Shown here piece by piece: positions 33,219-48,829 of a stretch of DNA of 64,000 nucleotides. The position numbers were made by a program, and so were the translations under genes. Positions within the stretch are counted from its first letter, which is position 1. The number at the start of each line of letters is the position of its first letter. The notes below the pieces were generated by a model. That model saw only the letters and a program-made list of their open reading frames with translations, was not told the origin of the DNA and ran no database searches. Source of the stretch: an uncultured Solirubrobacterales bacterium (lineage in GTDB: Bacteria > Actinomycetota > Thermoleophilia > Solirubrobacterales > 70-9); the NCBI GenBank assembly GCA_963837695.1, contig CAWINZ010000005.1:220155-284154 (forward strand), given 5' to 3'.

Positions 33219-33259
33219 CGCGCCCGACAGGATTCGAACCTGTGACCTTCGGTTTCGTA
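33219..33259 (-). repeat. att repeat R1: copy of the tRNA-Arg 3' half (outermost junction)
   Basis: cgcgcccgacaggattcgaacctgtgaccttcggtttcgta is identical to 51382..51422 of the intact tRNA. Confidence 0.85.
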
Positions 33260-33389
33260 ACCCGAGACGGTGGATCGGCTGGGCTACGTGGAGCCCGGTT
33301 TCAAGCGGTTTCCGGCGAATCGAGTCCCGCTGGGATCGGCTGGAATCTGTGGGGCATGTTGCCCCATTTGTTGCCCCAGGGATGGAGAC

Positions 33390-34067
33390 TCAAGCAACGA
33401 GGGCAATCACTATGCCGGCGATTCCGACGAGGCCACCAATTGCTCCGATGATGATGCCCAGGCGGTTGCGTCGGTAGTCCTCGGCGGCGCCAACTGCCTC
33501 GCGAAGCTTGCGACTCAGCTCGTCGGCTTTGTCAGAGGCGGTTCGCAGACATTCGGCGCCATAGATCCAATCGCTCCACTTATGAGCCGTCTTTCGCGTC
33601 CGACCTTCCTCCATCCAGAAGCGCACCTCACGCTCAAGTTCCTGGATCTCCTCGGCGCTGGCAACGGAGGGCAACTTGCCGTGGTCAACGAGGCGGGCGG
33701 CGTTTGCGTAGTAGCGATCCCAGATGCCGTCCTTCTTCAGCTTGCCGAGGCGTGCCTTGGCAACGACCTCGAAGGACTCCATCATCGTTCGACGCAGATG
33801 ATCCTCGAAATTGGTGAGCTGGTCGCGCTGCTCCTCGTTAGAGAGATCCGGAGCGCTCTCGGCAAGGCGCGCGAGATGCGAGAGAGCCTCGGTGAGGTTG
33901 TTGCGGCCGATCCGGTTGTAGATGCGGGCATGCTCCTCGGCATAGCGATGTGCCTCCATCACCGTGAGGATGCGCGTGGAGAGAACCTCGAACATGCGCT
34001 CGACCTGCTCGCGGTAGACACCGGCGATCCGCTCGTCGGCGCTCGTCGGGGTAGAGGGGTTCTGCAC
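33390..34067 (-). CDS. hypothetical protein with C-terminal TM anchor
   Basis: 225-aa ORF, helical and charged, ending RLGIIIGAIGGLVGIAGIVIALVA. Confidence 0.55.
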   Translation of the reverse strand: MQNPSTPTSADERIAGVYREQVERMFEVLSTRILTVMEAHRYAEEHARIYNRIGRNNLTEALSHLARLAESAPDLSNEEQRDQLTNFEDHLRRTMMESFEVVAKARLGKLKKDGIWDRYYANAARLVDHGKLPSVASAEEIQELEREVRFWMEEGRTRKTAHKWSDWIYGAECLRTASDKADELSRKLREAVGAAEDYRRNRLGIIIGAIGGLVGIAGIVIALVA

Positions 34068-34097
34068 CGCTAACCGCCTAAGCCTGCCGAGAACTGG

Positions 34098-34388
34098 CTA
34101 GCAGCGAGTTGGGATCGGCGGTTTGGCGGGCGGACGGTAGCCCTCGGGTAGAGGCGGCAGCTCCTTGAGCAGTTCGTCCCCAAGTGCCGCGAGCTCAAGC
34201 AGCTCGCTCTCCGTGTAGGAGTCGAGCACCGAACCCACCTCGCCGCCCATCTCAGAGCCGGGACCCTCGGGCAGATCGATCAACTCCGGAAGATCCTCCA
34301 GTGCAGTAAGCGAGACTTCCTCAGCCGAGATCCCCAGGCGAGTCGATGCCCAGGAATGAAAGAACGTGTCGTCGCGCGAAGAAGTCAT
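34098..34388 (-). CDS. hypothetical acidic protein
   Basis: ORF 34098..34517 trimmed to MTSSRDD, which is preceded by a GGGAGGG Shine-Dalgarno-like sequence. Confidence 0.4.
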   Translation of the reverse strand: MTSSRDDTFFHSWASTRLGISAEEVSLTALEDLPELIDLPEGPGSEMGGEVGSVLDSYTESELLELAALGDELLKELPPLPEGYRPPAKPPIPTRC

Positions 34389-34679
34389 CGAAGGAGAGCC
34401 CTCCCGCTCCTCATGGGAAGAAGCGAAGCTCGGCCTGGTAGCGAGGAAGCGACAGGGGACGAACAAGGACGGCGTCCGTAGGTCCCATAGCGGAAGCGTA
34501 CCCACTTCGCATCGCATTCATGCTCTTCAACCCATCGGACGGAAATCCTTCGGCACGCATGGTCTCACCCCCCAAGCCTTCGATTGCTCGGCAGACTTAT
34601 ATCGCCTGGCGGCGAAGGGAGTCGCCTCCCACACCGGGGAACGTCGCTGCCGCCGTTACGACCCCTGGCTGGAGTGCGC

Positions 34680-35204
34680 TCACGCATCGCCCACGGTTAG
34701 CTCGGGAAGCATCTTTGAGAGAAAGTCCTCAGCGGACTTGCGAATGCGTAGATCTCCAGCTCTGAGGCAGTCGAGGACTGCCAGGATTTCACCGAGTTGG
34801 GGCCATCCCTCGACCGCCTCCGGCGCCGCAGTATGCAACGGCTCGATTGCCTGCCCCCGGACCTCCCCATGGGCGTAGGGCCAGACCGGAGGCGGCTCGT
34901 CGCCTGAGGAGCGGATCGCGCCCGCCATCGGCTCCGCCGCCCATGCCGCAGGCACGCCCGGCGTCAGTGCACCGAGCCGAGCAGGAGCAGCAAAGCGAAG
35001 TGCATGAAGCGCGAACTCCTCGAAGTGAGGGAGATGGACTTCGCGACCGTCTACTGAATACAGATCCACGCCCTTCGCTCGCTCCAGCGCACGCTGTACG
35101 ACCGGGTGCGGAACACGGAGACGCTCCGCAAGCGACCTGTAGCTCCAAGCCTCATCGTGGGCGAGCAATCCGCCGAGGACATAGATGTCGGAATTCTTGA
35201 TCAC
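34680..35204 (-). CDS. hypothetical protein with N-terminal winged-helix-like segment
   Basis: 174-aa ORF. SYRSLAERLRVPHPVVQRALERA looks like a wHTH recognition region. Confidence 0.45.
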   Translation of the reverse strand: MIKNSDIYVLGGLLAHDEAWSYRSLAERLRVPHPVVQRALERAKGVDLYSVDGREVHLPHFEEFALHALRFAAPARLGALTPGVPAAWAAEPMAGAIRSSGDEPPPVWPYAHGEVRGQAIEPLHTAAPEAVEGWPQLGEILAVLDCLRAGDLRIRKSAEDFLSKMLPELTVGDA

Positions 35205-35445
35205 GATGGCGAAGGGTATCGAGTATCAATACACGATACAATCGAATGCGGAGCGGATGGCTATTCGAACCCCTGATCGTCCGCCACGTGGCGGGGCGCA
35301 CACTCGGTGCCCGGCCCGTTTAGCTGCCCGATCTGGATCGACTCGTCGTCCCAACCCCAAACCGAGAAACCAGCCGCCGCGAGTTCGTCAAGGACCGCAT
35401 CGAGCCTTGCCTTCGCCTCTGCGATGTCCATCGGTCCAGCCCCCG

Positions 35446-35869
35446 TCAGAGCTCGACCGCCTCATCGAGAACGCGGTCGCGCATGTAGGGCGACAGGCTG
35501 GCCTCGGTGACGACATCCACCTGGACCCCAAGGCGTTCCTCCAGGTCGTTAGACAGTGCGATCAGGTCAAACAAGGTCCGGCCCTCCGCCATGTCAACGA
35601 GAAGATCGAGATCGCTGGAGGCACCATGTTCCCCACGTCCGGTCGAACCGAACAAAGCGAACGTTGCCCGCCCCGTGGGCGGTAGCAATGCGGCGCACAT
35701 CCTTCCGAATCTCCGTCAGCTCCTCGATGCGCTCGAGCTCGTCGCGGTCGAGCCCGCCGGCGCGGCGCAAGCGCTTGGCCAACTGGCGTAGTCGCTCCGC
35801 GCGGTCGTTCGTCTCCTCGATCTCGTATCCCGCCTCCGCTTTCCTGGCAAGGACATCCGACCAGGGCAT
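35446..35869 (-). pseudogene. MNT-type nucleotidyltransferase (HEPN/MNT antitoxin-like), +1 frameshifted
   Basis: The N-terminal part (..IRKDVRRIATAHGAGNVR) is in frame 35594..35869. The catalytic part (LFGSTGRGEHGASSDLDLLV) is in frame 35446..35700. The frames join if one T of the run at 35654-35656 (minus-strand TTT) is removed. Confidence 0.6.
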
Positions 35870-36142
35870 CGGTTATTTGCTTGCCGCTGGCCGTCCTGCC
35901 GTAGGTTTTCCTCGTCGTCGGTCGCACAGACAACATGTATCCTAGAAGCTGTGGGCTACAAGCGGGTCAAGACCGAGCACGCTGGGGCTAAGAACGGGCT
36001 ACAACCCGCTGACCGGACCCCGTTCAGCGGTCCGATTTCAAGGGGTCGGGCCAGCCCCAGGCGTTGCCCCAGCGGCAATCTCGCACTGTTCGAGTGACCC
36101 TCGAAAGGCCGGAATTCCGCTCCACAAGCGGGATTCCGCCAA

Positions 36143-36184
36143 CGCGCCCGACAGGATTCGAACCTGTGACCTTCGGTTTCGTAG
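36143..36184 (-). repeat. att repeat R2: tRNA-Arg 3'-half copy flanked by both conserved arms (attP-like junction)
   Basis: 42 nt identical to 51382..51423. The conserved arm ~36054-36142 lies on one side and 36185-36304 on the other. Confidence 0.85.
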
Positions 36185-36317
36185 CCCGAGCCCGTGGATC
36201 GGCTGGGCTACGTGGAGCCCAGTTTCAAGCGGTTTCCGGCGAATCGAGTCCCGCTGGGATCGGCTGGAATCTGTGGGGCATGTTGCCCCAATTGTTGCCC
36301 CAGGAGGCTGATTCGGG

Positions 36318-36758
36318 TCACGATCCGGGGAGTTGGACGCACTCGAAGGCGAGGACCTCTGCGAGCTTGTCGAAGTGCGTGTCGCGGTGCAGAACCGCCA
36401 CCCCGCCGTGCTCGGCCGCCGCGGCGGCAACGAGTGCATCCGTGATGGGCACCCGGTGGTATCCGTCGCCGCGCTCGGCCAACTCGCCGACAGCGGCCAT
36501 CGCCGCGTCGGTCACGGCGCGATCGTTGCGAAGGATTCGCAGCGAATCGAGCTCGCTCTCGAGTTCGAGATACTCGGAGCTACTGCGGGCCGAGTAAAGA
36601 ATCTCCATCCGCACAATTGGTGTGATCCAGAGGCGATCGGCAAGGATTGCGTCGTCCACGAGCGAGCGAAGTTCATCGGGAAGCGAGGCGATACGCCACC
36701 ACGCCGAGGTGTCGGCGACGAAGGGCGCATCGCTGCGCAACAACTCCAAGGCGTTCAC
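36318..36758 (-). CDS. vapC: PIN-domain toxin VapC
   Basis: FVADTSAWW (first Asp), EILYSA, and ITDALVAAAAAEHGGVAVLHRDTHFD (last Asp), a typical PIN pattern. Confidence 0.8.
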   Translation of the reverse strand: MNALELLRSDAPFVADTSAWWRIASLPDELRSLVDDAILADRLWITPIVRMEILYSARSSSEYLELESELDSLRILRNDRAVTDAAMAAVGELAERGDGYHRVPITDALVAAAAAEHGGVAVLHRDTHFDKLAEVLAFECVQLPGS

Positions 36759-36765
36759 CGCGCCG

Positions 36766-36933
36766 CTACTGCTCGTGGTCGGTCAGCTGCTCAATCCGCT
36801 TGAGCACGCCGCGGTCCAACCCGTCCGGGCTTTGCAAACGCTTGGCCAGCATGCGCAGCCGCTCGGCGCGCTTCTCCTCGCTCAGCGCCGGCTTCTCCGC
36901 AGTGGGAGTCGTGCTCGGGATCGGATGGCTCAC
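36766..36933 (-). CDS. possible 55-aa antitoxin upstream of vapC
   Basis: Own codon-by-codon translation: VSHPIPSTTPTAEKPALSEEKRAERLRMLAKRLQSPDGLDRGVLKRIEQLTDHEQ. It ends 7 nt before the vapC GTG. Below the ORF-track cutoff. Confidence 0.4.
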   Translation of the reverse strand: MSHPIPSTTPTAEKPALSEEKRAERLRMLAKRLQSPDGLDRGVLKRIEQLTDHEQ

Positions 36934-37001
36934 AGAGCCAGAATAGCGCGCGAGTCCGCTACTTCAGCGCTCCCAGCAAGACTGGCCGATACCTTCTCAG
37001 C

Positions 37002-37226
37002 ATGACCACTCGCGAGAAGCTGGAAAAGCTGCTCGACCGGTTCTCCGAGGACGAGCTGTCGGCGGAGTACGCGCGACTGCGGGAAGTCGTCGCAGGAAAA
37101 CGCCCTGCCGATAACCGGGCCAATCTTGAACAGTTCAGCGCCCGCGCCTCACGCGGCGTTCTCCGCCACATGGCCGAAGACGAAGAAGCGGCGGGACTCT
37201 CCTGGGAGGAGTTCCAGCCGCGGTGA
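37002..37226 (+). CDS. possible antitoxin (74 aa) coupled to a MazF-like fragment
   Basis: Its stop overlaps the next start as GTGA (37223-37226). Acidic and helical. Confidence 0.4.
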   Translation: MTTREKLEKLLDRFSEDELSAEYARLREVVAGKRPADNRANLEQFSARASRGVLRHMAEDEEAAGLSWEEFQPR

Positions 37227-37340
37227 CACGCGGCTGGGTCTGGTGTCACGAGCCGCCAGACAAAAAGCTACGCCCAGCTCTCGTCCTCACGAGCGACGAA
37301 GCCATCAGCGTCGCCAAAAACACCCTTAATCCGACTGCGC
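37223..37340 (+). pseudogene. N-terminal fragment of a PemK/MazF-family toxin
   Basis: TRGWVWCHEPPDKKLRPALVLTSDEAI resembles the RG.iw.v......K.RPalVl MazF N-terminus. The rest of the listed ORF is antisense to the 323-aa gene. Confidence 0.4.
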
Positions 37341-37345
37341 CAGCC

Positions 37346-38317
37346 CTACTCGACCAGTCGCCGCAACTCGTCGGTAAGCCGCTGCTCAAGGTGCCTGATA
37401 GTGGAGTAACTGATGCATCTCTCACTTTGGACATCGAACTTCAGATCGGAACCGTCATGACGCAGCAGCACGGTGGGAACCTCGGCTCCCCAGGCGAATC
37501 CAACCTCCAAGTAGACATTGGGGTTGGCGTCCGTGAGATCCGCGACAACCAGCGTCGCCGAGCGGATTCTCTCCTTGATGCGTTCTGGAATGCTGCCGGT
37601 GAACGCCTGCTCGTCAATCCGCTCGCAGAGCAAGCCGCTCTTGTGCACCGCAGGTTCGATGGCATAGTGGAAGATGTCTTCGAATTCTTGTGAGAAGGGC
37701 ATCGCCACGAACGCATGGTCCCGAGTGGCGGCGGTCGCTTCCGTTGACCGGCGTAGCCCCTTTGAAATCTCGCCCGTGGAAGTGGAAGTCAGTGACCCCG
37801 TCAGGCGCGACGTGGGAATCGCTTCCTCAAGGCGGATGCGAAGCCGCTCGGCGCGCTGCTCGTCCAACTCAACGATAGAAACTCGTTTGAGACTGCCCGC
37901 GGTCCGCCCCTCAATCCCTTCGACAATCCCCGCAAGCTCCGCTTCAAAACAAGCGGCCTCATCCAATCCATAGCCGACTCCGTGCAGGGTCAGGGCCAGG
38001 TCTTGACAGTCTGGAAACTCTGCCACCGCAAGGGATACCGCCCGGCGCCCGAACAGGCGAATCTCCGTGTAGCCGAAATCCGAAAGGGGCGGCACACCCA
38101 AGAAAACCACATTAGATGGCCCTACCTTTTCGGGACTGCGCACCACTAGCTGACCTCCAGGCCGAAGGTCCATCTCTAAATCCAGTCCAAGCCGTTCCTT
38201 TGCCGCCGCATCCACGCCAAGTGAAACCTGGGCGTGCTTGAGTACGAGCACATCGGAGGTGATAGCCAAAACATCGGCCGGGTCGACGTCGATAGCCACT
38301 CCCTGCAACTCCACCAT
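37346..38317 (-). CDS. two-domain cargo protein: unknown N-domain plus nucleoside 2-deoxyribosyltransferase/TIR-like C-domain (defence-effector candidate)
   Basis: 323-aa ORF. The C-terminal HAFVAMPFSQEFEDIF...ATLVVADLTDANPNVYLEVGFAWGAEVPTVLL matches the Rossmannoid pattern F.aMPF ... aDlt..NpNV.yE.GyA.g...p. Confidence 0.7.
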   Translation of the reverse strand: MVELQGVAIDVDPADVLAITSDVLVLKHAQVSLGVDAAAKERLGLDLEMDLRPGGQLVVRSPEKVGPSNVVFLGVPPLSDFGYTEIRLFGRRAVSLAVAEFPDCQDLALTLHGVGYGLDEAACFEAELAGIVEGIEGRTAGSLKRVSIVELDEQRAERLRIRLEEAIPTSRLTGSLTSTSTGEISKGLRRSTEATAATRDHAFVAMPFSQEFEDIFHYAIEPAVHKSGLLCERIDEQAFTGSIPERIKERIRSATLVVADLTDANPNVYLEVGFAWGAEVPTVLLRHDGSDLKFDVQSERCISYSTIRHLEQRLTDELRRLVE

Positions 38318-38402
38318 AGACGGCAGCTTAATCGGTTCTGGATACCCCTGGACCTTTCACTGGATTGTTCCCGGTCGCACACCACAGCTTTACCGCGAGC
38401 GT

Positions 38403-39629
38403 TCAAGACCAAAACGAACCTCTCGCAATGGCGCATTGCGAGACCATTTCCAACGGCGGCGCCTCGTCGCCCGGCAGCAGATGCGTGTAGCGGGTCAGCG
38501 TGAAGGCGGGCGAGTGGTGGCCGAGGGCTCGGCTCAGTTGGAGGAGGTTGGTGCCTTGGCTGAGGTGGAGCGAGGCGAAGGTGTGGCGGAACGTGTGGAA
38601 GCCCGCCCAGGGGGTGCCTGCCTCCTCTGCGAGGGGCTTCAGGACGCGGCGACGGAGGTTGCCCGGGTCGAGCGGGCCTCCGGCTTCGTTGGGGAAGGCG
38701 AGGGCGGTCGAGTCCCGGTCGGGCTGGGCGGCGAGATGGTCGCGCAGGCTCGCCGCCACTGATGCCGGTAGGCGGACCTCGCGTCGGCCGTGCCTGCTCT
38801 TGGGCGGCTCGATCCGCTCGCGGACGATCGCTCGGCGGATGCAGACCTCGGGCTCTGGGCCGTCAAGTTGAAGGTGCAGGCGTTGGAGGGCGATCGCCTC
38901 GCTGATCCGCAGGCCGCAGCTCGCCAGGAGCTCGAAGAGCGGGCGGTGGCGCTCGGGGGCTGTCGCCAGGAGCGCTGAGAGCTGCTCGCGGCTGAAGACC
39001 TTGATCTCCTCGCCCTCGTCCTCGAGCCGCTCGCGCTGGGGCAGCGCGAGGCCCTGAGCGGGGTTGTGGCGGATCAGGCCCTCGCGCTTGGCGGTCGCCA
39101 GGGCGGCGCGGATCGGTATCGCGACGTTGGCGATCGTGCGGTCGCTGAGGCGCTTGCCCTGCTCCTGCTCGTCGGCGAGCCAGTCGAGGAAGCGGGCGAG
39201 CTGGTAGGCGCTCAGCTCGGTGAGCTTCAGCCTGCCGGAGAAATAGCGGCGGGCGTAGATGCGGATCAGGCGCCGGTATTCGTCGCGGGTGTTCTCGCGG
39301 AAGCCCCGGCGGCCCTGGCCCCGATAGCGCTCGACCCACTCCTCCAGGTAGCGCAGGAAGGAGATCGTCGTGCGCTCCTGCAGCTCGCCGCGGTCGCGGT
39401 CGGTCTCGCTCTCGCGCTTGATCCGCTTTGCCTCCTCGTAGGTGCGGGCGCTGCGCTTGCGCTGCCTGCCGGCGCTGCGGAAGACGCAGACGTAGCCGAT
39501 CACGTCGCCGCCGGCGCCGAGCCGCTTGAAGACGCCTGGCGTCTTGGTCTTCTGGAGCCGCCGCTTGTCACCGCAGCCTGGACCGGCCGCAAGGGCCGAC
39601 GTATCCTGGGAAACGCTCATGAGCATCAC
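38403..39629 (-). CDS. int: tyrosine recombinase / phage-type integrase (element E2)
   Basis: The C-terminal catalytic region has GLRISEA, HTFRHTFAS and GHHSPAFTLTRYTHL (R..HxxR..Y). Confidence 0.9.
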   Translation of the reverse strand: MMLMSVSQDTSALAAGPGCGDKRRLQKTKTPGVFKRLGAGGDVIGYVCVFRSAGRQRKRSARTYEEAKRIKRESETDRDRGELQERTTISFLRYLEEWVERYRGQGRRGFRENTRDEYRRLIRIYARRYFSGRLKLTELSAYQLARFLDWLADEQEQGKRLSDRTIANVAIPIRAALATAKREGLIRHNPAQGLALPQRERLEDEGEEIKVFSREQLSALLATAPERHRPLFELLASCGLRISEAIALQRLHLQLDGPEPEVCIRRAIVRERIEPPKSRHGRREVRLPASVAASLRDHLAAQPDRDSTALAFPNEAGGPLDPGNLRRRVLKPLAEEAGTPWAGFHTFRHTFASLHLSQGTNLLQLSRALGHHSPAFTLTRYTHLLPGDEAPPLEMVSQCAIARGSFWS

Positions 39630-39740
39630 CTCGTGAGCCGGGGGCGGGCCGTTAGCGCGGCGCCGCCCCGTTTTGCGTTGTCGGACAAGACGTTAACAGG
39701 AAGATGCGGCCTGTCAGCCTGCTCCAACGATGGAGAGATG

Positions 39741-39812
39741 GGTTCGCTATGGGGTTCGCACTGCGGTTCGCACTGTAGTTCGCACTGCGGTTCGCACTGC
39801 ACTTCGCATGAG
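39741..39812. repeat. six tandem 12-bp repeats (consensus gGTTCGCACTGc) upstream of int
   Basis: Units read directly: ggttcgctatgg, ggttcgcactgc, ggttcgcactgt, agttcgcactgc, ggttcgcactgc, acttcgcatgag. Confidence 0.85.
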
Positions 39813-40008
39813 CCGATGCCGAAACCGAGGCAAAGCCGCATTGGAAGAGGCTTTGCGGCGACCACGCTTTGCTGACTTCTATATGTCGAACTAGCTTCTT
39901 TCCAGATTCGCTGTCGGTTGCCCTCGGGCTCGCGGTCCGTCCGCGTCCGTCAGCCTCGCCGTGGCTCTGCTGATCTTCGCCTGCCGGTCCCCCCGGCGCG
40001 GCTCGTTG

Positions 40009-40305
40009 TCACTCGCCGCGGGTCTGTGCGTCGCTCGACGGCGGGCTGTCGATCTCGTAGCGCCCGTCCCCCGTTCCGACGAAGCTCGGCCTGTAGGAGA
40101 TGCCGTCGAGCAGCTCGGCGGGCGAGACCGAGAGCGCGCCTGCGAGTCTGACGACGACATCCAGGGTGGGGACGTTGATCTGCCGCTCGTATTTCCGGAC
40201 GGCGTCGCGGCTGAGCGAGGCGCGGAGCGCCAGCCCTTCCTGGGTGAGACCCGCACGCTTGCGGAGGCCGATCAGGTTCTCGGCGAAACGGGCCTGGAAG
40301 CTCAC
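40009..40305 (-). CDS. XRE-family helix-turn-helix regulator (second of two)
   Basis: ORF 40009..40371 trimmed to the GTG at 40305, which overlaps the upstream stop as GTGA. FAENLIGLRKRAGLTQEGLALRASLSRDAVRKYERQ is an HTH_3 pattern. Confidence 0.7.
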   Translation of the reverse strand: MSFQARFAENLIGLRKRAGLTQEGLALRASLSRDAVRKYERQINVPTLDVVVRLAGALSVSPAELLDGISYRPSFVGTGDGRYEIDSPPSSDAQTRGE

Positions 40306-40591
40306 GGCGCCTGCTGCGGATCGTCCACCTCGAAGCGGCCCTCCACGACCTCGACGTGTCCGGGCGTCCACTTGAAGCCGGCGAGGAGGTCGCCCACGGG
40401 GACCGAGACAGCGCCCGCGAGCCTGACGATCGTGTCGATCCTCGGCGTCCGCGCTCCCCGCTCCAGCAGCCCGATCGCCGTGCGATGGAGCCCGGCCCGG
40501 TAGCCGAGCTCTTCCTGAGAAGCCCAGCCTGCTCGCGGCAGCGGGCGAGGTTGCGGCCGAACTGGGCGGCGACCTCGGCTGAACGCTTCAA
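40302..40591 (-). pseudogene. XRE-family HTH gene with a -1 frameshift (identical lesion in the sister copy)
   Basis: FGRNLARCREQAGL is in one frame and SQEELGYRAGLHRTAIGLLERGARTPRIDTIVRLAGAVSV is in the next. The junction is at ~40514-40525 and the length is 290 nt. The TTG start overlaps the upstream stop as TTGA. Confidence 0.55.
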
Positions 40592-40977
40592 AGGAGAAGG
40601 CCCTCGGGCACTTCGGCTGGCCCGCCCTTGACCAGCGTGGCGACGATCACGCCGCTGCGGCTCGTGTGCCCGCCCTCGACCGTCCAGCGGTCGCTGATCT
40701 GGCCCGCCGTGAGGACCGGCATGCCGCCGCGCAGCTCCTCGACGTCCCGCCCAGAGCGACCCGCGGGCACTTCGATGAGGCAGGTGGCGCATCTCCAAAG
40801 CGACTGCGGCCGGTCGGGGTCGACCACCGGGAACTCGACCCGCAGGAGGGTCGTGCGCTCCCCGGCCGGATTGCGGCCCTCCTGGGGGTCGGCGCTCAGC
40901 CTGCCGGTGAGGACGGCGTGGTTGATCGCCGGAGGGGTCGATGCGGGCCCCGGCGCCCGGTGCTCTGCGGGACTCAT
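40588..40977 (-). CDS. SSB-like OB-fold protein
   Basis: INHAVLTGRLSADPQ..R.....ER..LLRVEF resembles the N-terminus of single-stranded DNA-binding proteins. Confidence 0.55.
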   Translation of the reverse strand: MSPAEHRAPGPASTPPAINHAVLTGRLSADPQEGRNPAGERTTLLRVEFPVVDPDRPQSLWRCATCLIEVPAGRSGRDVEELRGGMPVLTAGQISDRWTVEGGHTSRSGVIVATLVKGGPAEVPEGLLL

Positions 40978-41378
40978 GCCGAGCCCTGGCGGGTGCGGAG
41001 CTCGAGCAGCAGCTCCGTGCCCGTGTCGAGAGTGAGGTGATAGCGACGGCGGCTAACTTCCTCGTCTTCGCGGGATTCGCGCTCGTCCGGTCGCTCGGTC
41101 AGCGCGCCCCTGGCGTCGGCTCGCAAGCGCTCGAAGATCGCGGCCAGCTCCCCGGACGGGATCGTCAGCGGGATCTCGGAGCGGTCATCGGGACCCCAGC
41201 CGAGGTCGTTGAGCAGACGGAAGTCCTCGGCGAACTCCCTGGCGAGCCGCCCGGCGGTGTCGAAATCCCCGCGGTCGATCGCTATCCGGACGTCTCCGAG
41301 GGCGCCCAGGTGTTCAACAAGGAACCCGTAGACGGCGTCTCGCTTCTCGCCCGTGAGAGTGGCGGTCGGGTGGTGCAT
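40974..41378 (-). CDS. hypothetical 134-aa backbone protein, first gene next to att
   Basis: Good RBS (GGAAGGAGA). Clearly diverged paralogue of 50665..51069. Confidence 0.6.
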   Translation of the reverse strand: MHHPTATLTGEKRDAVYGFLVEHLGALGDVRIAIDRGDFDTAGRLAREFAEDFRLLNDLGWGPDDRSEIPLTIPSGELAAIFERLRADARGALTERPDERESREDEEVSRRRYHLTLDTGTELLLELRTRQGSA

Positions 41379-41690
41379 GGCGTCTCCTTCCGGTCGGGCA
41401 CCGAAAGAGCCGCCAGGGATGCCGCCGTCAGAACGCCACGGCGGTACCGTCTCTCTCGCATCGAAGGCTCGTACTTCGGTGCCGGCCCCGGGGCGTTAGC
41501 GCGCTGCCGGGGCGCTTCTTATTCGCGTTTGCGCGGCGAACGTAGGTGGACCGGGAACCCAGCGCAAGGCCTGGGATCGAACCTCACTCCGACCTCATGT
41601 TGCCCCAGGCGTTGCCCCAGCGGCAATCTCGCACTGTTCGAGTGACCCTCGAAAAGCCGCAATCCCGCTTCACAAGCGGGATTGCCGGAG

Positions 41691-41732
41691 CGCGCCCGAC
41701 AGGATTCGAACCTGTGACCTTCGGTTTCGTAG
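41691..41732 (-). repeat. att repeat R3: tRNA-Arg 3'-half copy flanked by both conserved arms
   Basis: 42 nt identical to 51382..51423. The arm 41596-41690 is identical in layout to 51287-51381. Confidence 0.85.
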
Positions 41733-41896
41733 CCTGACCCCGCAGACCCGCTGGGCTACGTGGAGCCCGGATTCAAGCGGTTTCCGGCGAATCGAGCTAC
41801 GTGGAGATCGGCTGGAATCCGTGGGGCTGCTTGCCCCATTTCTTGCCCCAGGGACCGAACGGAGTTAGCTTCGTCCCTGGCCGATACCATGAGGAC

Positions 41897-42085
41897 ATGG
41901 CTCATGCCACCAAGGCAGATGAATCCGTCGCCAAGCGCCGCCGCGCGGCGGCTGAGGAGATGCGCGGCATGTTTGCCCATGTCGCTCCCGGGGTGAGCTT
42001 GGCAGACGAGCTAATCGCCGACCGTCGAGCCGAGGTCCGCTCAGAAGAGCGGGCAGAGGCCGAGCGGCGACGTGCCAACGGCTGA
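41897..42085 (+). CDS. possible VapB-type antitoxin (62 aa)
   Basis: ORF 41801..42085 trimmed to MAHATKAD, because the upstream part lies in the att arm. Overlaps the vapC start. Confidence 0.45.
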   Translation: MAHATKADESVAKRRRAAAEEMRGMFAHVAPGVSLADELIADRRAEVRSEERAEAERRRANG

Positions 42086-42494
42086 GACCCCGGCGTCGAT
42101 TCTCGACGCCTCAGCACTGCTCGCCCTGCTCCAAGATGAGCCAGGAGCCGCCGCGGTGGTCGAGGCAATCGAAGCTGGCGCCGCCATCAGCACCGTCAAC
42201 CTCTCTGAGGTGCTGGCCAAGCTGGCCGAGCGAGGAGAGCATGTGCGGTCGACTATGGCCACGATCGGGCAAGCCGTCGACCAGGCCGACGGCGGGCTTC
42301 GGATCGAGCCCTTCACGGAAGAGGACGGCATCGAGGCCGCAGACCTCCGACCACGCTCAAAGAGCCAAGGCCTGTCCTTCGGCGACCGGGCGTGCCTCGC
42401 CCTGGCCGCCCGCTTCGAGGTGCCGGCGGTCACAGCGGATGGAGACTGGGCCGACCTGCCGAAAGTCGGAGTCGCCGTCAAGCTGATCCGGTGA
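42072..42494 (+). CDS. vapC: PIN-domain toxin VapC
   Basis: ILDASALLALLQDEPG (first Asp), NLSEV, and SFGDRACLALAARFEVPAVTADGDW, a typical PIN pattern. Confidence 0.8.
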   Translation: MPTAETPASILDASALLALLQDEPGAAAVVEAIEAGAAISTVNLSEVLAKLAERGEHVRSTMATIGQAVDQADGGLRIEPFTEEDGIEAADLRPRSKSQGLSFGDRACLALAARFEVPAVTADGDWADLPKVGVAVKLIR

Positions 42495-42751
42495 CCGACA
42501 CCCGCTCGCGAAAATCGGCTAACCGGGAAAAGACCCTTGGACCGACCCACGATCCCCAGCCTGGTGACTTCGACGCCGAACTTGACCACCCCCGCCCCGA
42601 TCAGATTGAGATCCACAAGGGCAACCCCGACGCAAAGCTCTCGATCCTCGTCAGCGTCGAGGGCGACGACGCCAAGCGCCTAGAGCGAATCGCCACCGAG
42701 CGCGGCCAGCAACCCGGCGAGGTCGTCTCCCGGCTCCTACGCAGCGCCTGA
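42491..42751 (+). CDS. small protein with ribbon-helix-helix-like C-terminus
   Basis: GTG at 42491 overlaps the vapC stop as GTGA. The C-terminal DDAKRLERIATERGQQPGEVVSRLLRSA is CopG/RHH-like. Confidence 0.4.
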   Translation: MTDTRSRKSANREKTLGPTHDPQPGDFDAELDHPRPDQIEIHKGNPDAKLSILVSVEGDDAKRLERIATERGQQPGEVVSRLLRSA

Positions 42752-42787
42752 GCCTTCCAAAGAGCTTCGGATGCGACCGGCAGCAGT

Positions 42788-42940
42788 CCCGACCTGTGAC
42801 CTTCGGTTTCGCACTTGGACGGTCCGATTCGTAGCCCGAGCCGGGGGATCGGTTGGGCTACGTGGGGCGCGACTTCAATCGGTTTTCGGTCGATCGAGTC
42901 CCGCTGGGATCGGTTGGGCTACGTGGGGCATGTTGCCCAG
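42788..42940 (-). repeat. degenerate att plus arm (R4)
   Basis: cccgac[deletion]ctgtgaccttcggtttcg, then an 18-nt insertion, then cgtagcccgagcc..ggttgggctacgtgggg..catgttgccc. Recognisably related to R1-R3 plus the arm. Confidence 0.55.
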
Positions 42941-43099
42941 TGCGTGCTCGGCCGAGCTTTGGCTCTGCTGCCCTTCGAGCCACACGGATAGGTCCGCCCC
43001 AGTCAGGAAATCAGCGTGTGAGGTCAAGACAGGGCTCGGATGCAAGGCACGAGATCAATGTAGTGGCGGCCGGCGCCGGCAAGCGCGTCGACTGGCCAG

Positions 43100-45247
43100 C
43101 TAAGCCGCCAGGGACCAGAGATTCCAATCTCCGGCCCCCTTCAACTCTAGCTTGCCCATTTTGGCCCAGTCGAAATCGTGGGCGTTGATCCTGACCCGAT
43201 CATCCGTTACCACCAGGTTCGGCCGCGCCTGATCGCAAATGCGAGCCGCGACGTCCACATCGCGGCCGCGGAGATTTCCGAATTGATCCTTTCTCGCCAC
43301 ACCTTTGGTGAGGCCGGCCCGCGCCACGAGCTTGTCGCTGCCCGGATCAATGACCAAGTCCCTAAGGCACTTGATCGCAGCCATCGGCTCCTCAAATGCA
43401 AGAAGAAAGCCGTCTCCCGTGTCGTTGATGCGCATGCCCTTGTATTTCTTGAGGAGGCTGCGCATGCGCTTCTCGTGTGCGTTCCACTCCAGGGCATAGG
43501 CTTTCTCACCAAGCCGTCCCTTCGCATCCGTTGCACCGGTGAGATCGGTGAACGCGATCACCGTCTCCACCTCTTCAGTGGATGCAAGATCTGAAGCGTC
43601 GTAGGACCGCGAGGCTACATAGGTGATGAACTGCGATTTGTCCGCCCTTCCTTTCGCCGACAGGTTGTGGAAGGACTTCACACTGCGAAACCCCGACTCT
43701 TCAAGCAAGCCGACAAGCTGTTTGCGTTTGAACGGCAGCACGTCGAACGTCCCGACTGGCTTTCCGCTGCTTGAGCGGATGTACTCAAGCGTTAGGACGT
43801 CGTTGTCGATACCGGGCAACTCTGGCATGCTCTTCGGTCGCGCCCGAATCGTGTTGCTGCAGTAGACCACGCGTCCCGGAAAGCGAAAGTCCGGCTTCGC
43901 CATCTGCCGACGCTCGTCGAACATCGTCGGGTAATTGCGCTCATCGACGATCAACAACCCTTCCGGTCGCAGTAGGTAGGCAAAGCGCGTCAGAACCGCT
44001 CGCACGTCGCTGACCGTGCGCAGGCAGCTCAACGAGTTGCCCAAGGCTAAAAGTATGTCGAAAGTCTCTGGCTCGGCCAGATGCTCAAAGTGGCGCCAAT
44101 CAAAGCGGGTCAGGCTGAGGGGCGACCCGCCTTCCCGCTCCGAAAGCTCGGTCGCATGTGCGATCAGCCTCGCATCGATCTCGTTCGAGACAACCCGGTG
44201 CCCTTTGGAAAGCAGGTACGCCGAATCGCAGCCGACCCCGGTGGCGGCGTCGAGGACTGTCGCCTGAGCGAGGCCAATTTCCTCGATCCTGGCCTCCACG
44301 AACGGGCCCAGTTTGGTTACCCTTCTTTCAGGCGCAACAAACTCGTCCCAGACGTCTGCGAGTAGCGGCTCGAACATGCTGTCGAGGCTCCAGAGGATGT
44401 GCTCCTGCAGATCCGTTGGCACGTCGTCGGTAACAATCGTGTCATTGTTGAGGCTGACCAGTTCCGCTTGTTCGACGAGGCGGGCCACGTATCGCAGATA
44501 TGCCCGGAACCTGTCATCGAAGGGGTAGACAAGCTCCAAACGCAATCTGTTGTTGTTCGGCTTGACGTTTTCCTCAAAAAGCAGTGCGCAGGTGTTCACC
44601 CACAGGCCGAGATCACCGGTCCACTCTTCGTTCAGGACAGCATCGTGAATCAGCGCGTGCTTCTGGGGCTCGATGCACAGAGGGGTGATGTGGTGCCGTT
44701 TGTGCTCTTGAAAATATCGCCTGGCAAGGTCCGGATTACTGTCGAAATCCGCCTGCAGCGCCTTTACGGATTGGGGGATGATTCTCACGGACCTGGGAGC
44801 GTGGCACTCATGATGCGCAACAGTTGAAGAGAGATCGTCGTGGTCCTCGGGATCGCCCTCTGCGAGGTTGCCAAGCAGAAAGGGGTGGACCTGGAGAAAG
44901 CGACTCGGTGGGTGCGAGTCCACCCCGATGTAGATGTCTTGGATGGTGCTGTAGAACAGCGAGACGACGGCCTCCATCTGGTGGAGCGGAATCCGGATCT
45001 CCTGCTGTGCAGGGATGGCGTCGCCTTTCCCTCTGAGCAGGTCGACGAGCTGCTGCCCTGAGTTATCGAGGAACGCCTCCATGATCTCCTCTGCGACTCG
45101 CTGGTCATGGGCGATGGGACGCCGTCGCCCATTGGGAATCTCGATGCCGAGCTTCGACAACAGTTCAATGAACCGGAGCTCCAGTTTGGAGGAAGATTCT
45201 TTGTCTCGTCGAGAGTCAGACATAAAACACAGAAGTTCGTTTACCAA
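43100..45247 (-). CDS. three-module fusion protein: unknown N-domain, GNMT-like class I SAM methyltransferase, class III nucleotide cyclase
   Basis: MTase motifs: VLDAATGVGCDS, VVSNEID, FDILLALGNSLSCL, RPEGLLIVDERNY. Cyclase motifs: VIAFTDLTGAT, INDTGDGFLLAF, ARAGLTKG, GRDVDVAARI, ELKGAG. The listed start is TTG; the ATG at 45223 (MSDSRRDK) is the likelier start. Confidence 0.85.
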   Translation of the reverse strand: MVNELLCFMSDSRRDKESSSKLELRFIELLSKLGIEIPNGRRRPIAHDQRVAEEIMEAFLDNSGQQLVDLLRGKGDAIPAQQEIRIPLHQMEAVVSLFYSTIQDIYIGVDSHPPSRFLQVHPFLLGNLAEGDPEDHDDLSSTVAHHECHAPRSVRIIPQSVKALQADFDSNPDLARRYFQEHKRHHITPLCIEPQKHALIHDAVLNEEWTGDLGLWVNTCALLFEENVKPNNNRLRLELVYPFDDRFRAYLRYVARLVEQAELVSLNNDTIVTDDVPTDLQEHILWSLDSMFEPLLADVWDEFVAPERRVTKLGPFVEARIEEIGLAQATVLDAATGVGCDSAYLLSKGHRVVSNEIDARLIAHATELSEREGGSPLSLTRFDWRHFEHLAEPETFDILLALGNSLSCLRTVSDVRAVLTRFAYLLRPEGLLIVDERNYPTMFDERRQMAKPDFRFPGRVVYCSNTIRARPKSMPELPGIDNDVLTLEYIRSSSGKPVGTFDVLPFKRKQLVGLLEESGFRSVKSFHNLSAKGRADKSQFITYVASRSYDASDLASTEEVETVIAFTDLTGATDAKGRLGEKAYALEWNAHEKRMRSLLKKYKGMRINDTGDGFLLAFEEPMAAIKCLRDLVIDPGSDKLVARAGLTKGVARKDQFGNLRGRDVDVAARICDQARPNLVVTDDRVRINAHDFDWAKMGKLELKGAGDWNLWSLAA

Positions 45248-45414
45248 ACTGGCGGAGTTGCGGCAATCTAACGCATGAAGCCGACGACCACACGTCTGCG
45301 AATGGCCTCAGGCCTATCTAAGCCAGCGCATCACTCAGCTTGGCGCGGCAAGGATGGACGCGGTCTGCTTAACACTTAGCCAAGGCCACAAGTTGCGGCT
45401 GATCCCTCGGAAGA

Positions 45415-47415
45415 TCAATTTTTATCCTCGCTGGTTGCCGGGGCAAACCAGTGCCGCAGGGTCCGCCTCACACGCGGGGTTAGATTGGCGGCAAGCCAGG
45501 CGCGAGCAACCAAGAAATTCCAACCGGTCACAAGGCTGACGACGCCGCTGAGGGTAAGGAGGAACACAAGTCCCGAGCCGAGGGGAACTAGCTTTGACCA
45601 CGATGAGGGAAAGAGGCCCTGGGCGGCTGCGGCACAGGCGGCGATAAGCAGCAAGAGGGCGAATCCAAAGGCCGTCCACGAGATCGCGGAAGCCAACTGG
45701 TCGGCACGAGCGTCGAGACGGTCGGCGTGGCGGGTGGCGACGCGCTCGGCCCGCGCAGCCTCGGCGCTCGCGCGATCCTTTTCGGCCGCTACGGCGGCGT
45801 CGGAACGCTTGCGAAGCGCTCGCTCCCGCTTAAGCTCGTCCTCCACCTCCGCCCGCGCTGCCTGCTCGGCACGACGAAGAACCTCAGTGATGGTGCCAGC
45901 AGCGACAGCCTCAACGTCGCCGTCGGTGGCATTCATCAACTCGAGGCGGGCATCAGGCGAGAACAGCAGGAGACCGACCTGCTCCTCGCTAAGCTCGCCG
46001 CGCTCTTGTAGACGGCGGATCTCGGTCAGGTATTTGCGCCAGACATCCTCAGGCGGATTCAGGGCCGCATAGCTGATTGCGATGATCTGCCGACGAGGAA
46101 GATCAGAGGCTTGCGATGGGTTCATCAGCCAGACGATTGCGGCAAGGCTGTAGTCAGACATGCAGACCGGCACTGAACGGTGCCCGAAAATCTCGGCGAA
46201 GAAGGCGCGAGAGACGTGAGCTAGCGTGGTGTTGGTCGTAACAAGCAGCGCGTCGGCGCTCTCGATGTGGCGGCGAACCTCACCGCTGCGAAGCCGATAG
46301 ATCGCAGCCAGGGAGTCGAGATCCTTGACCATGGTGCCGTGAAGACGGTAGTGGACGCCATCTTTCAACGCCCTTCCCAACTCCTTCTCCGAAAGTTCAA
46401 TCTCTTCCGTGCGCTCGGGCGTGCCGACAACTTCGATCGCACGAGCGTCGAGCCGTTCGCTGAGCGCCGCGATGTCCATCTCGACATCGCTGCGGCTTAG
46501 GCTCTTCGACGCGAAGTAGTCGACCACATCGCCAGGGACATGGTCCTTCTTTCGTCCGGTGCGGTAGGTAGCAGCCGCGCCATCGAGGACTCCCTCGACC
46601 TCATGCAGGGTGTGCTCGAAGATGCGCAGCTTGGCGTCCTCTCCCGCCAGCAAGTCAACCAGTTCTTCGACCGGCTCCCTGTACTGCTCCTCGGCGTATC
46701 CCAGTGCGCGCAGAACGACTGGCGTATCGAGGTAGACCTCAACATCGGACAAGCGAGCACGGCCACCCGAGAACGTCTCCGGCAGAAAAAGAACGTTGGC
46801 CAACATGGATCCCTTGACAATCGTCGCCAAGTACTCGAAGGCCTGCGGCTCCTTGTGACAAAGATCGAGGACGAACCGACTGGTGACAACCGCGCCCTCG
46901 GACTCGATCTTAGGCAGCTCGACGACCGGTTCGCCGTCCACCACCGCGCCAAGTACCGGCTCAGCGAGAACCTCGACGTAGCCGAGTAGGGCCCGCTCAG
47001 CCTGCTCCTCGCTCCACTCGCGCCCCACGCCAGCAGCGAAATCGACCAGGAGGCCAACCAGATGGTTGTGCTGGCGGACAACATCTTCCCGCTCGGAGCC
47101 GAGGTCGAACTCGCGCAAAGCCTCCGGAATGCGTTCATAGGCACCGTGGCGACGACGAAGCAACCCATCGCGGGACATGCGGCCAAGGATCGTCTGCAGG
47201 GCACCCTGCGGGATGTGAAGGCCGAAGTCGCTGGCAACCAAAGCCTTGGTGTCGGGCAACGAAATCTTCTCGTGCTCCCCGCGGCGAATGCAGTCAGCGA
47301 CAATCGGGACGAAGTTGGCTATGTAGTCCTTGTCCTCATCCCAGTTGACCTTGATCACGGCCAAGGCCGAAATCGCCTTGAGAAGATCCACTGGAAGCAC
47401 GGCGGGCGCACTCAT
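45415..47415 (-). CDS. 666-aa protein of unknown function with Ala/Arg/Glu-rich coiled coil and two C-terminal TM helices (effector candidate)
   Basis: Long clean ORF in lower-GC DNA. The C-terminus has AISWTAFGFALLLLIAACAAAAQGLF and LVPLGSGLVFLLTLSGVVSLVTGW. Confidence 0.8.
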   Translation of the reverse strand: MSAPAVLPVDLLKAISALAVIKVNWDEDKDYIANFVPIVADCIRRGEHEKISLPDTKALVASDFGLHIPQGALQTILGRMSRDGLLRRRHGAYERIPEALREFDLGSEREDVVRQHNHLVGLLVDFAAGVGREWSEEQAERALLGYVEVLAEPVLGAVVDGEPVVELPKIESEGAVVTSRFVLDLCHKEPQAFEYLATIVKGSMLANVLFLPETFSGGRARLSDVEVYLDTPVVLRALGYAEEQYREPVEELVDLLAGEDAKLRIFEHTLHEVEGVLDGAAATYRTGRKKDHVPGDVVDYFASKSLSRSDVEMDIAALSERLDARAIEVVGTPERTEEIELSEKELGRALKDGVHYRLHGTMVKDLDSLAAIYRLRSGEVRRHIESADALLVTTNTTLAHVSRAFFAEIFGHRSVPVCMSDYSLAAIVWLMNPSQASDLPRRQIIAISYAALNPPEDVWRKYLTEIRRLQERGELSEEQVGLLLFSPDARLELMNATDGDVEAVAAGTITEVLRRAEQAARAEVEDELKRERALRKRSDAAVAAEKDRASAEAARAERVATRHADRLDARADQLASAISWTAFGFALLLLIAACAAAAQGLFPSSWSKLVPLGSGLVFLLTLSGVVSLVTGWNFLVARAWLAANLTPRVRRTLRHWFAPATSEDKN

Positions 47416-47614
47416 AACGCGCGCCCTCTTGCCGCGACGATGCGCTCGCTAAAGCTCACACGACCCCTTCCCGCCTTCAAGGCACAGACCCTCCCCGAAT
47501 GTCATTTTTCCCAGGCAGCCAGGCTACGCGGCATCAGGACTTCGAGCGTTCTCGTACCTGCAATTTCCGGTACTTAATTGATCCGGTCCCGACGCTCTGC
47601 GACGCCAAACGCAG

Positions 47615-48829
47615 TCAAGGCTCTTCGCCACGGCGTCGGTGCGACAGATCGAGCGCCGGCGCCTCGTCGCCGGGCAGCAGATGCGTGTAGCGGGTCAGCG
47701 TGAAGGCGGGCGAGTGGTGGCCGAGGGCTCGGCTCAGTTGGAGGAGGTTGGTGCCCTGGGCCAGATGGAGCGAGGCGAAGGTGTGGCGGAACGTGTGGAA
47801 GCCCGCCCATGGGGCGCCTGCCTCCTCTGCGAGGGGCTTGAGGACGCGGCGACGGAGGTTGCCCGGGTGGAGCGGGCCTCCGGCCTCATTGGGGAAGGCG
47901 AGGGCGGTCGAGTCCTGATCGGGCTGGGCGGCGAGATGGTCGCGCAAGCTCGCCGCCACCGATGCCGGTAGGCGGACCTCGCGTCGGCCGTGCCTGCTCT
48001 TGGGCGGCTCGATCCGATCGCGGACGATGGCGCGGCGGATGCAGACCTCGGGCTCGGGGCCGTCAAGCTGAAGGTGCAGGCGCTGGAGGGCGAGCGCCTC
48101 GCTGATCCGCAGGCCGCAGCTCGCCAGGAGCTCGAAGAGCGGGCGGTGGCGCTCGGGGGCTGTCGCCAGGAGCGCTGAGAGCTGCTCGCGGCTGAAGACC
48201 TTGATCTCCTCGCCCTCGTCCTCGAGCCGCTCGCGCTGGGGCAGCGCGAGGCCCTGAGCGGGGTTGTGGCGGATCAGGCCCTCGCGCTTGGCGGTCGCCA
48301 GGGCGGCGCGGATCGGTATCGCGACGTTGGCGATCGTGCGGTCGCTGAGGCGCTTGCCCTGCTCCTGCTCGTCGGCGAGCCAGTCGAGGAAGCGGGCGAG
48401 CTGGTAGGCGCTCAGCTCGGTGAGCTTCAGCCTGCCGGAGAAATAGCGGCGGGCGTAGATGCGGATCAGGCGCCGGTATTCGTCGCGGGTGTTCTCGCGG
48501 AAGCCCCGGCGGCCCTGGCCCCGATAGCGCTCGACCCACTCCTCCAGGTAGCGCAGGAAGGAGATCGTCGTGCGCTCCTGCAGCTCGCCGCGGTCGCGGT
48601 CGGTCTCGCTCTCGCGCTTGATCCGCTTTGCCTCCTCGTAGGTGCGGGCGCTGCGCTTGCGCTGCCTGCCGGCGCTGCGGAAGACGCAGACGTAGCCGAT
48701 CACGTCGCCGCCGGCGCCGAGCCGCTTGAAGACGCCTGGCGTCTTGGTCTTCTGGAGCCGCCGCTTGTCACCGCAGCCTGGACCGGCCGCAAGGGCCGAC
48801 GTATCCTGGGAAACGCTCATGAGCATCAC
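47615..48829 (-). CDS. int: tyrosine recombinase / phage-type integrase (element E3b)
   Basis: Differs from the E2 integrase by six substitutions plus a different C-terminal tail. Confidence 0.9.
   Translation of the reverse strand: MMLMSVSQDTSALAAGPGCGDKRRLQKTKTPGVFKRLGAGGDVIGYVCVFRSAGRQRKRSARTYEEAKRIKRESETDRDRGELQERTTISFLRYLEEWVERYRGQGRRGFRENTRDEYRRLIRIYARRYFSGRLKLTELSAYQLARFLDWLADEQEQGKRLSDRTIANVAIPIRAALATAKREGLIRHNPAQGLALPQRERLEDEGEEIKVFSREQLSALLATAPERHRPLFELLASCGLRISEALALQRLHLQLDGPEPEVCIRRAIVRDRIEPPKSRHGRREVRLPASVAASLRDHLAAQPDQDSTALAFPNEAGGPLHPGNLRRRVLKPLAEEAGAPWAGFHTFRHTFASLHLAQGTNLLQLSRALGHHSPAFTLTRYTHLLPGDEAPALDLSHRRRGEEP

Follow-up and report, generated by a model that had tools for sequence, protein, structure and literature searches.

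A tandem array of small tRNA-Arg(ACG)-associated defense islands with mosaic backbones in a Solirubrobacterales genome

Organization of the tRNA-Arg(ACG) array

The window analyzed here is a stretch of 64,000 nucleotides (nt) from an uncultured Solirubrobacterales bacterium (contig CAWINZ010000005.1; ~70% G+C), and it contains a tandem array of small genomic islands, E1, E2, E3a, and E3b, at a tRNA-Arg(ACG) gene. The tRNA gene (51381–51455, minus strand; ARAGORN, and the Rfam tRNA family at 73.7 bits) is intact and is the integration target, and its 3′ 42 nt (51382–51423) form the left attachment (attL) core of E3b. This core, which extends from the anticodon loop to the tRNA 3′ end, is present again at the E3a/E2 border (41691–41732, minus strand), as the same sequence at the E2/E1 border (36143–36184), and with one mismatch at the border between E1 and the chromosome (33219–33260). 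Four 42-nt direct repeats thus flank the elements, with the intact tRNA-Arg at one end, and in the sense of the tRNA the order is tRNA, E3b, E3a, E2, and E1. The cores are flanked by conserved arms containing a doubled GGGGCAAC with a 12-nt spacing.

The array also contains damaged units. E1 (33261–36142) is an integrase-less remnant with both arms, although within the attL arm the second GGGGCAAC is interrupted, and E3a (41733–42791) is an integrase-less remnant with a PIN gene and an attR arm only. E3a is homologous to the distal cargo of three related elements from other genomes and metagenomes (L001, L020, and L021; see below for this collection). The attR core of E3b (42792–42834, minus strand) is degenerate, consisting of CTACGAA, a 17-nt insert, and 19 nt of the core with the remainder deleted, such that E3b and E3a can probably be excised only together.

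Backbone genes of E2 and E3b

The backbone genes of E2 and E3b all lie on the minus strand. The E2 integrase gene (int; 38403–39620) matches Pfam Phage_integrase and SAM_5 and has a conserved start, ATGAGCGTT, at 39620, and the E3b integrase gene (47615–48820) is likewise recognized by Pfam. The Phage_integrase match and alignment columns R241, H345, R348, H371, and Y381 (Arg, His-x-x-Arg, His, and Tyr), which are invariant, identify both as tyrosine recombinases. The last conserved nucleotide of int, junction J, is at 38445 in E2 and at 47645 in E3b, and the E2 tail beyond it (38403–38444) is unrelated to the E3b tail. A terminator-like hairpin followed by a T-run lies inside the variable E2 tail (38421–38443, minus strand) and is also present in the related element L009.

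An HTH_3 (XRE-type) regulator gene (40009–40371; Pfam and PHROG) is identical to its E3b counterpart at 49712–50074. Two XRE genes had been proposed for the backbone in the original prediction, of which this one is real, whereas the second does not code for a protein and contains a conserved array of 12-nt repeats. Open reading frames (ORFs) of 79, 106, and 115 codons (39626–39865, 48826–49146, and 49210–49557) were considered as Xis or XRE genes and rejected, because the G+C content at their third codon positions is low (0.65–0.68, compared with 0.80–0.89 in the real backbone genes), they have no Pfam or PHROG match, and they are composed of 12-nt tandem arrays; they also show no codon-position bias in G+C.

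The third gene codes for a 129-residue protein resembling single-stranded DNA-binding (SSB) proteins (40588–40977; the E3b copy, at 50291–50668, has 125 residues). It was proposed from the sequence to have an OB-fold, and an SSB-like OB-fold is confirmed both by a phmmer search of the Protein Data Bank (PDB), which matches the OB domain of Deinococcus SSB (1se8; E=1.8e-5), and by Foldseek comparison of its AlphaFold2 (AF2) model with many bacterial SSBs (E=5e-8, TM-scores of 0.6–0.8). It is detected in just three of the 85 loci of the family.

The first gene after attL (40974–41378; E3b copy 50665–51069) codes for an acidic, helical protein of 134 residues in both elements, with a pI of 4.7–4.9, and is the most often detected accessory gene (25/85 loci). 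The helical AF2 prediction is confident (pLDDT 90), and it has no PDB or BFVD fold match below E=0.08 and no match in a PDB sequence search. An early-entry or anti-defense role would fit its position and charge, although this is speculation. Relatives were not detected outside the E2/E3b family, and a conserved promoter-like TTGAGA-N17-TACGTT precedes the gene (leaders up to 41601 and 51292). As originally predicted, the backbone lacks a recognizable replication, transfer, or capsid gene, and Pfam and PHROG scans of its ORFs return no such domains.

Conserved non-coding features

Upstream of int there is a 12-nt tandem array (GGTTCGCACTGC, 5.7 units by TRF; 39741–39808), which is also present in E3b (48941–49008) together with a second array that E2 lacks (49434–49510). 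Such arrays are present upstream of int in many related loci, in either orientation, with a core of [TA][GA]CGA[GA]C and with motifs mostly 12 nt (74 cases) or 24 nt (25 cases) apart. Across the family they have 5–6 units, often occur in pairs, and lie 180–570 nt upstream of the int KTKTPG motif. Each E3b array is preceded by a copy of a 175-bp 'c' repeat and a 27-nt box (GTTCGACATATAGAAGTCAGC...).

The int leader of ~85 nt is conserved family-wide and contains TGTTAACGT, a GC-rich hairpin, a Shine-Dalgarno (SD) sequence, and the start ATGAGCGTT. The hairpin (39641–39669, minus strand; also 48841–48869) is near-invariant, with GGGGCGGCGCCG and CGGCCCGCCCC enclosing a variable loop and with one compensatory pair, and is followed by the SD (GAGGTG) and start codon. 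In both int leaders (39603–39700 and 48803–48900) the SD and start codon lie within a second small inverted repeat. The leader of the 134-residue protein gene has a hairpin of like architecture (41499–41530 and 51191–51222), with no consistent match between the loops of the two hairpins within an element. Scanning 32000–53000 against Rfam gave only tRNA matches and no family for the leader hairpins or arrays, and no sigma-70 consensus promoter was found in the backbone. Our guess would be that the arrays and hairpins regulate int expression or excision.

Comparison of E2 and E3b

We compared coordinates 34000–42500 with 42500–53000 by BLASTN and then by global alignment scored per 100 nt together with a list of mismatches. 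BLASTN aligns 38454–40024 with 47654–49225 (offset 9200; 98.2% identity, 27 mismatches, and one gap) and 39849–41732 with 49553–51423 (offset ~9703; 88.8% identity), reproducing both offsets of the original prediction. Divergence across the global alignment is not uniform, and three zones can be distinguished. Zone A, the 3′ part of int (38458–38895, aligned with E3b 47658–48095), contains 22 substitutions (~95% identity). Zone B (38896–40736, aligned with 48096–50439) is free of substitutions across all 1841 nt, a single 503-bp indel being the one difference, and extends from int codons 1–244 through the int leader, 12-nt array, and HTH_3 gene into the SSB-like gene, of which it includes the 3′ 50 codons. 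Zone C (40737–41590, aligned with 50440–51282) includes the 5′ part of the SSB-like gene and the 134-residue protein gene with its leader, and is only 65–88% identical. Identity then rises again to 98% in the attL arm (41592–41691), and below 38457 the alignment contains no similarity between the two elements.

This profile agrees with the original prediction that a near-identical backbone is bounded by the integrase tail and the middle of the SSB-like gene, with similarity ending within the tail on one side and with lower identity of the SSB-like and 134-residue protein genes toward att on the other. The six amino acid changes proposed for the integrase are all present (I246L, E271D, R305Q, D321H, T339A, and S357A), and P392A, E394D, and M395L follow immediately before the unrelated tails. 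The reported 12-nt indel is instead two separate 6-nt indels of two codons each in the SSB-like gene. The integrase is under purifying selection, as only six of the 22 zone A substitutions are nonsynonymous and the Arg, His, Arg, His, and Tyr columns are invariant.

The two offsets arise because a 503-bp segment flanked by 175-bp direct repeats (c1, 49049–49225, and c2, 49553–49727; 91% alike) is present only in E3b. E2 has a single 'c' copy (39849–40024) that is an exact chimera, corresponding to c1 on the left and to c2 on the right with a switch near 39930–39937, a hallmark of deletion through recombination of one repeat with the other. Because family members commonly have two arrays upstream of int, and two c-like copies are present in L086 as well, the single array of E2 is the derived state and E2 carries a 503-bp deletion.

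Relatives of E2 and E3b and the integrase junction

Integrase relatives at 72–91% identity are present in five metagenome-assembled genomes (MAGs) of Solirubrobacterales and Actinomycetes, and in soil metagenomes at least 187 stretches encode a relative, of which 80 loci were retrieved. The sample comprises 85 related loci, which reduce to 72 non-redundant elements. A tRNA-Arg(ACG) gene lies upstream of int in three of the five MAGs (L002, L003, and L005), where host flanking genes are also present, and the same flank of pyruvate-kinase and enoyl-CoA-type genes with tRNA-Arg is followed by different elements in L003, L005, L013, L014, and others. Related genomes thus have different occupants at one site. 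A second, unrelated family of elements uses the same tRNA-Arg(ACG) core (L002 3191–7860, L037 1480–6532, and L014 16480–18979) and is found in tandem with members of the E2/E3b family; its arms differ, containing GTTCCG repeats, and the integrase of the L002 member is only ~29% identical.

The order within the E2/E3b family is attL arm, small regulatory backbone, integrase, variable cargo, and attR arm, with the backbone including the acidic 134-residue protein, with or without the SSB-like and HTH_3 genes, followed by the 12-nt arrays and the leader hairpin. Counting from the start of the Arg codon in the integrase motif RYTHLLPG, the catalytic-Tyr box, 2759 pairwise alignments spanning int in 75 loci end between +17 and +57, and only 34 pass +80. 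In the 72 non-redundant elements the information per column drops to background exactly after +47, at the end of ...DEAPALDL and 16 codons from the Arg; the block before this point varies at wobble positions, and no cargo-side motif is present beyond it. The C-terminal tails of the integrases are 0–44 residues long and unrelated among loci. The slot next to int is therefore extremely variable, as the survey of int genes and their 3′ neighbors suggested in the original prediction would require.

The cargo is 1.8–7.5 kb long in 26 complete elements, with ~70 distinct cargos across the family. In 98 cargo ORFs, Pfam and PADLOC identify recurrent PIN, ThiF/E1-E2, CapP-type M78 with HTH, and AbiEii families, CAP12 and ThsB TIR domains, Vsr with C5-methylase, AIPR, GmrSD, Shedu SduA, Pycsar cyclases (PycC), RmrA, and PDC-M21A/B. 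Variable content enriched in known defense families thus lies between conserved flanks, and as judged from these matches the cargo is mostly anti-phage defense and toxin genes (TIR, PIN, Pycsar, Thoeris, CBASS-type, restriction-modification, Shedu, and AbiE), in keeping with the earlier description of a defense-cargo carrier.

Origin of the E2/E3b mosaic

We favor the interpretation, at a probability of roughly three in four, that E2 and E3b belong to one family of small islands that integrate at tRNA-Arg(ACG), and that their mosaic structure was generated by ordinary homologous recombination between relatives. As the anatomy suggests, the tyrosine integrase would insert the circularized element at the 3′ 42 nt of tRNA-Arg(ACG), and repeated insertions would build the tandem array of the tRNA, E3b, the E3a remnant, E2, and the E1 remnant, with co-resident or incoming relatives serving as recombination partners. 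A very recent gene conversion or crossover tract would then have homogenized 1.84 kb of the E2 and E3b backbones, and the 503-bp deletion between the 175-bp repeats in E2 would have followed this homogenization.

The recent exchange between neighbors that was originally proposed is supported by the position of 1.84 kb without substitutions between flanks of 95% and 65–88% identity. Even at 5% divergence, 1841 identical sites in a row have a probability of ~1e-41 and are therefore not due to chance. Zone C of E2 is most like L086 (91%) and that of E3b most like L009 (87%), indicating two different parental backbones.

It is unlikely that E2 and E3b instead reflect a recent duplication or re-integration of one element in which both flanks were later replaced, with no conversion between different elements. 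The substitution-free tract would fit a very recent common copy, and the single-copy repeat of E2 follows from the E3b arrangement by a simple deletion; however, this requires at least three further replacements (zone A, zone C, and the cargo) where a single conversion tract suffices, and the different affinities of the two zone C segments point to two distinct parental backbones. An artifact of assembly or polishing, with repeat copies homogenized by mis-mapped reads, is conceivable as the source of the perfect identity in a genome of the uncultured type, where the proteins of the window lie on a 2.2-Mb contig, but highly improbable, given the abrupt transitions to 95% and 65–88% identity inside genes with intact frames, the retention of the 503-bp indel and the exact chimeric repeat as structural differences, and the confirmation of both flanking types by independent metagenome contigs.

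Exchange of cargo

The proposal of a cargo-exchange hotspot at the 3′ end of int is well supported, both by the collapse of conservation after +47 in the 72 relatives and by a mismatch between cargo and integrase in L009. L009 contains the E2 cargo at ~98–99% identity (window coordinates 38400–36300) next to an integrase that is only ~88% identical, and the high-identity tract has one end inside int, 155 nt in at 38612, and the other near 36295, where the attR arm has its outer edge. Cargo is also more similar than the integrases in the pairs L060/L077, L040/L066, and L045/L066. The integrase genes of L022 and L025 are identical over 897 nt and then switch to different DNA between -3 and +26, beyond which a similar peptide is still encoded (DEAPALNL and EAVPAMEL); a donor thus brought its own integrase end together with the cargo.

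Homologous recombination that makes use of the conserved end of int and of the attR arm appears to be the best explanation of these patterns, in preference to a dedicated site. Cargo would be swapped as a block between two portable homologies, namely the strongly conserved RYTHLLPG...LDL box at the 3′ end of int and, at the far side of the cargo, the attR arm with its core. The sharpness of the boundary is best read as a consequence of protein-level constraint, in that selection would maintain the integrase to 16 codons from the RYTHLLPG Arg and nothing beyond, with the integrase ORF running into whichever cargo follows up to a stop codon. Deletions within a tandem array would create integrase-less remnants such as E1 and E3a as well as fused elements, and a crossover between tandem int genes, for which the substitution-free zone B would be an ideal substrate, would join the E3b backbone to the E2 cargo and reassort them in one step.

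An alternative is that the int 3′ end is a dedicated docking site at which cassettes are exchanged by a site-specific, integron-like reaction or one using very short homologies. The boundary is shared to within 1–3 nt by the 72 non-redundant elements and almost no pairs share sequence just past it, as a docking site would predict. Sister lineages likewise have sharp common junctions, either at +125, where a longer conserved tail ends, or at +625, past an additional conserved gene; their sharpness fits a docking site, and their differing positions speak against it. L043 and L047 contain a 40-nt relic of the int 3′ end (HLLPGDEAP...; L043 5357–5392 and L047 6702–6739) between a module of ~590 nt, which includes a winged-helix-like ORF overlapping the int stop, and cargo that abuts int directly in L035. 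The module thus lies exactly between the integrase end and an older integrase-end relic, as expected for an inserted cassette, although this is also the arrangement expected from a deletion fusing two tandem elements. An nhmmer profile search found no int 3′ relics at other module borders or in the remnants of the window, only those in L043 and L047, and together with the lack of a conserved cargo-side motif this does not support an attC-like cassette system; we therefore rejected a site-specific cassette model. The L022/L025 breakpoint lies upstream, at -3 to +26, the E2/L009 tract continues 155 nt into int, and by eye the junction does not resemble the att core. We thus regard a docking site as improbable. 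A broader version seems equally doubtful, in which the RYTHLLPG...LDL box is a nucleotide-precise capture site that would make the family an integron-like platform for gene capture around an integrase that targets a tRNA, the arrays and hairpins are a new control or replication module, and the 134-residue and SSB-like proteins act in early entry in the manner of a leading region.

Several points weigh against exchange and homogenization by ordinary homologous recombination among mobile relatives. Nested sharing just beyond +47 is scarce, making the boundary sharper than simple erosion predicts and leaving room for a more precise mechanism, and on the attR side the switch between E2 and L009 falls right at the edge of the arm, a place with only short homology. 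The nearest relatives indicate no single direction for the conversion, being L086 for the HTH_3 gene, L009 for the 3′ part of the OB-fold gene, and L008 for the 5′ part of int. We infer present-day mobility of the elements from their anatomy, and no excisionase was identified.

Cargo of the array and other features of the window

The E2 cargo and attR arm (36185–38444, minus strand; arm with doubled GGGGCAAC at 36185–36304) include genes for a 323-residue TIR-like effector (37346–38317, minus strand; PADLOC E=5e-13) and a PIN protein (36318–36758, minus strand). The cargo and attR arm of E3b (42835–47644, minus strand) encode a 666-residue protein with C-terminal transmembrane (TM) helices (45415–47415, minus strand) and a 715-residue protein (43100–45247, minus strand) with a SAM-methyltransferase domain and a weakly class-III cyclase-like C-terminus (FTDLTG...). 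This pair (43100–47415) recalls the layout of a cyclase plus a TM effector, as in Pycsar, and has no PADLOC model match as such. The PIN gene of E3a is at 42072–42494 (plus strand), and E1 contains a PDC-M21A-like gene (34680–35204).

Elsewhere in the window there is a decayed islet at a tRNA-Ser(TGA) gene (59746–60999), a low-GC segment within a 59-nt direct repeat of the tRNA 3′ end (59777–59835 and 60941–60999) that contains a C-terminal fragment of a tyrosine recombinase (59932–60201; ...GHSSITVTFDLYGHLMPG...) and an ORF of 199 codons. A 148-bp direct repeat (15392–15539 and 16744–16891; 90.5% identity) surrounds ~1.2 kb of DNA with a lower G+C content (63%), which may be another small insertion. 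Two palindromic elements of ~50 bp (2648–2700 and 57135–57183), 93% identical and 54 kb apart, may represent a repeat of the repetitive extragenic palindromic (REP) type.

Relationship to known elements

The E2/E3b family consists of small tRNA-integrating defense islands, a known kind of element, of ~3.5–10 kb in hosts of the Solirubrobacterales, and a literature search for islands in this order found nothing. Its members are similar to the tmRNA-integrated intY islands of Pseudomonas (VPI-1-like; Zhao et al. 2025, PMC12595487) in having a tyrosine integrase, direct repeats of the 3′ end of a small-RNA gene, defense cargo, and no recognizable autonomous transfer genes, but differ in targeting tRNA-Arg in Solirubrobacterales, in being much smaller (3.5–10 kb), and in having the integrase in the middle, between backbone and cargo. 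The Pseudomonas islands have been shown to be transferred by phage (PMC12595487); a pattern-based scan of IMG/VR viral contigs found no relatives of the E2/E3b integrase. The array also resembles the tycheposons of Prochlorococcus (Hackl et al., 10.1101/2020.12.28.424599), which are tRNA-targeted and modular with separate integration and cargo modules, and in which successive integrations push older elements inward and degenerate remnants and partial tRNAs accumulate. Many tycheposons carry a 2–4 kb replication module with primase, helicase, and polymerase genes (10.1101/2020.12.28.424599), whereas tandem tRNA-targeted accumulation with remnants is seen here without a detected replication module, only the SSB-like protein, and the cargo is mainly defense rather than nutrient-uptake genes.

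P4-like satellites and P2-like phages also have defense hotspots (Rousset et al. 2022, PMC9122126; PMC13586616) in which a variable slot between conserved genes holds diverse anti-phage systems that are exchanged among relatives, although E2 and E3b have no satellite or phage core genes and their slot begins inside the integrase ORF. Phage satellites such as phage-inducible chromosomal islands (PICIs), P4-like elements, or capsid-forming PICIs (cf-PICIs) are characterized by packaging or capsid-remodeling genes, a replication initiator or primase, and helper-responsive control, and the backbone proteins have no such Pfam or PHROG match. Relaxase, FtsK-like TraB, and Rep domains, which would indicate an integrative and mobilizable element (IME) or an actinomycete integrative and conjugative element (AICE), are absent from the backbone ORFs in Pfam scans, although an oriT or clt site may be present. 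An integron would have attC-like recombination sites at the borders of each cassette and an attI site next to the integrase, and the junctions have no conserved cargo-side motif and no repeated relics except for those in L043 and L047. With these defining modules absent, E2 and E3b are not demonstrable members of the satellites, IMEs/AICEs, integrons, or tycheposons.

The closest parallels for the array itself are accretion systems with cis-mobilizable elements (CIMEs; Guedon et al. 2017, PMC5704250) and the ssrA-specific islands of Dehalococcoides (PMC3146451), where tandem arrays arise by site-specific integration beside a resident element and where integrase-less units with flanking att sites resemble E1. 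The E1 attL arm and the E3b attR core are damaged, however, so these units appear to have decayed and not to be functional CIMEs. A CIME is defined by its relation to a conjugative partner, an integrative and conjugative element (ICE). The E2/E3b array does not contain a conjugation module.

The array represents a natural snapshot of the reassortment of minimal defense islands, in which tandem integration at one tRNA gene juxtaposes relatives, and recombination through the conserved int end and att arm would then swap whole defense modules and homogenize backbones. It belongs to a previously undescribed island family in the Solirubrobacterales, an abundant but little-studied group of soil Actinomycetota. 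The 12-nt arrays and leader hairpins, which have no Rfam match, are candidate regulatory elements, and many of the ~70 cargos are unannotated, such that new defense systems could readily be sought in the cargo slot.

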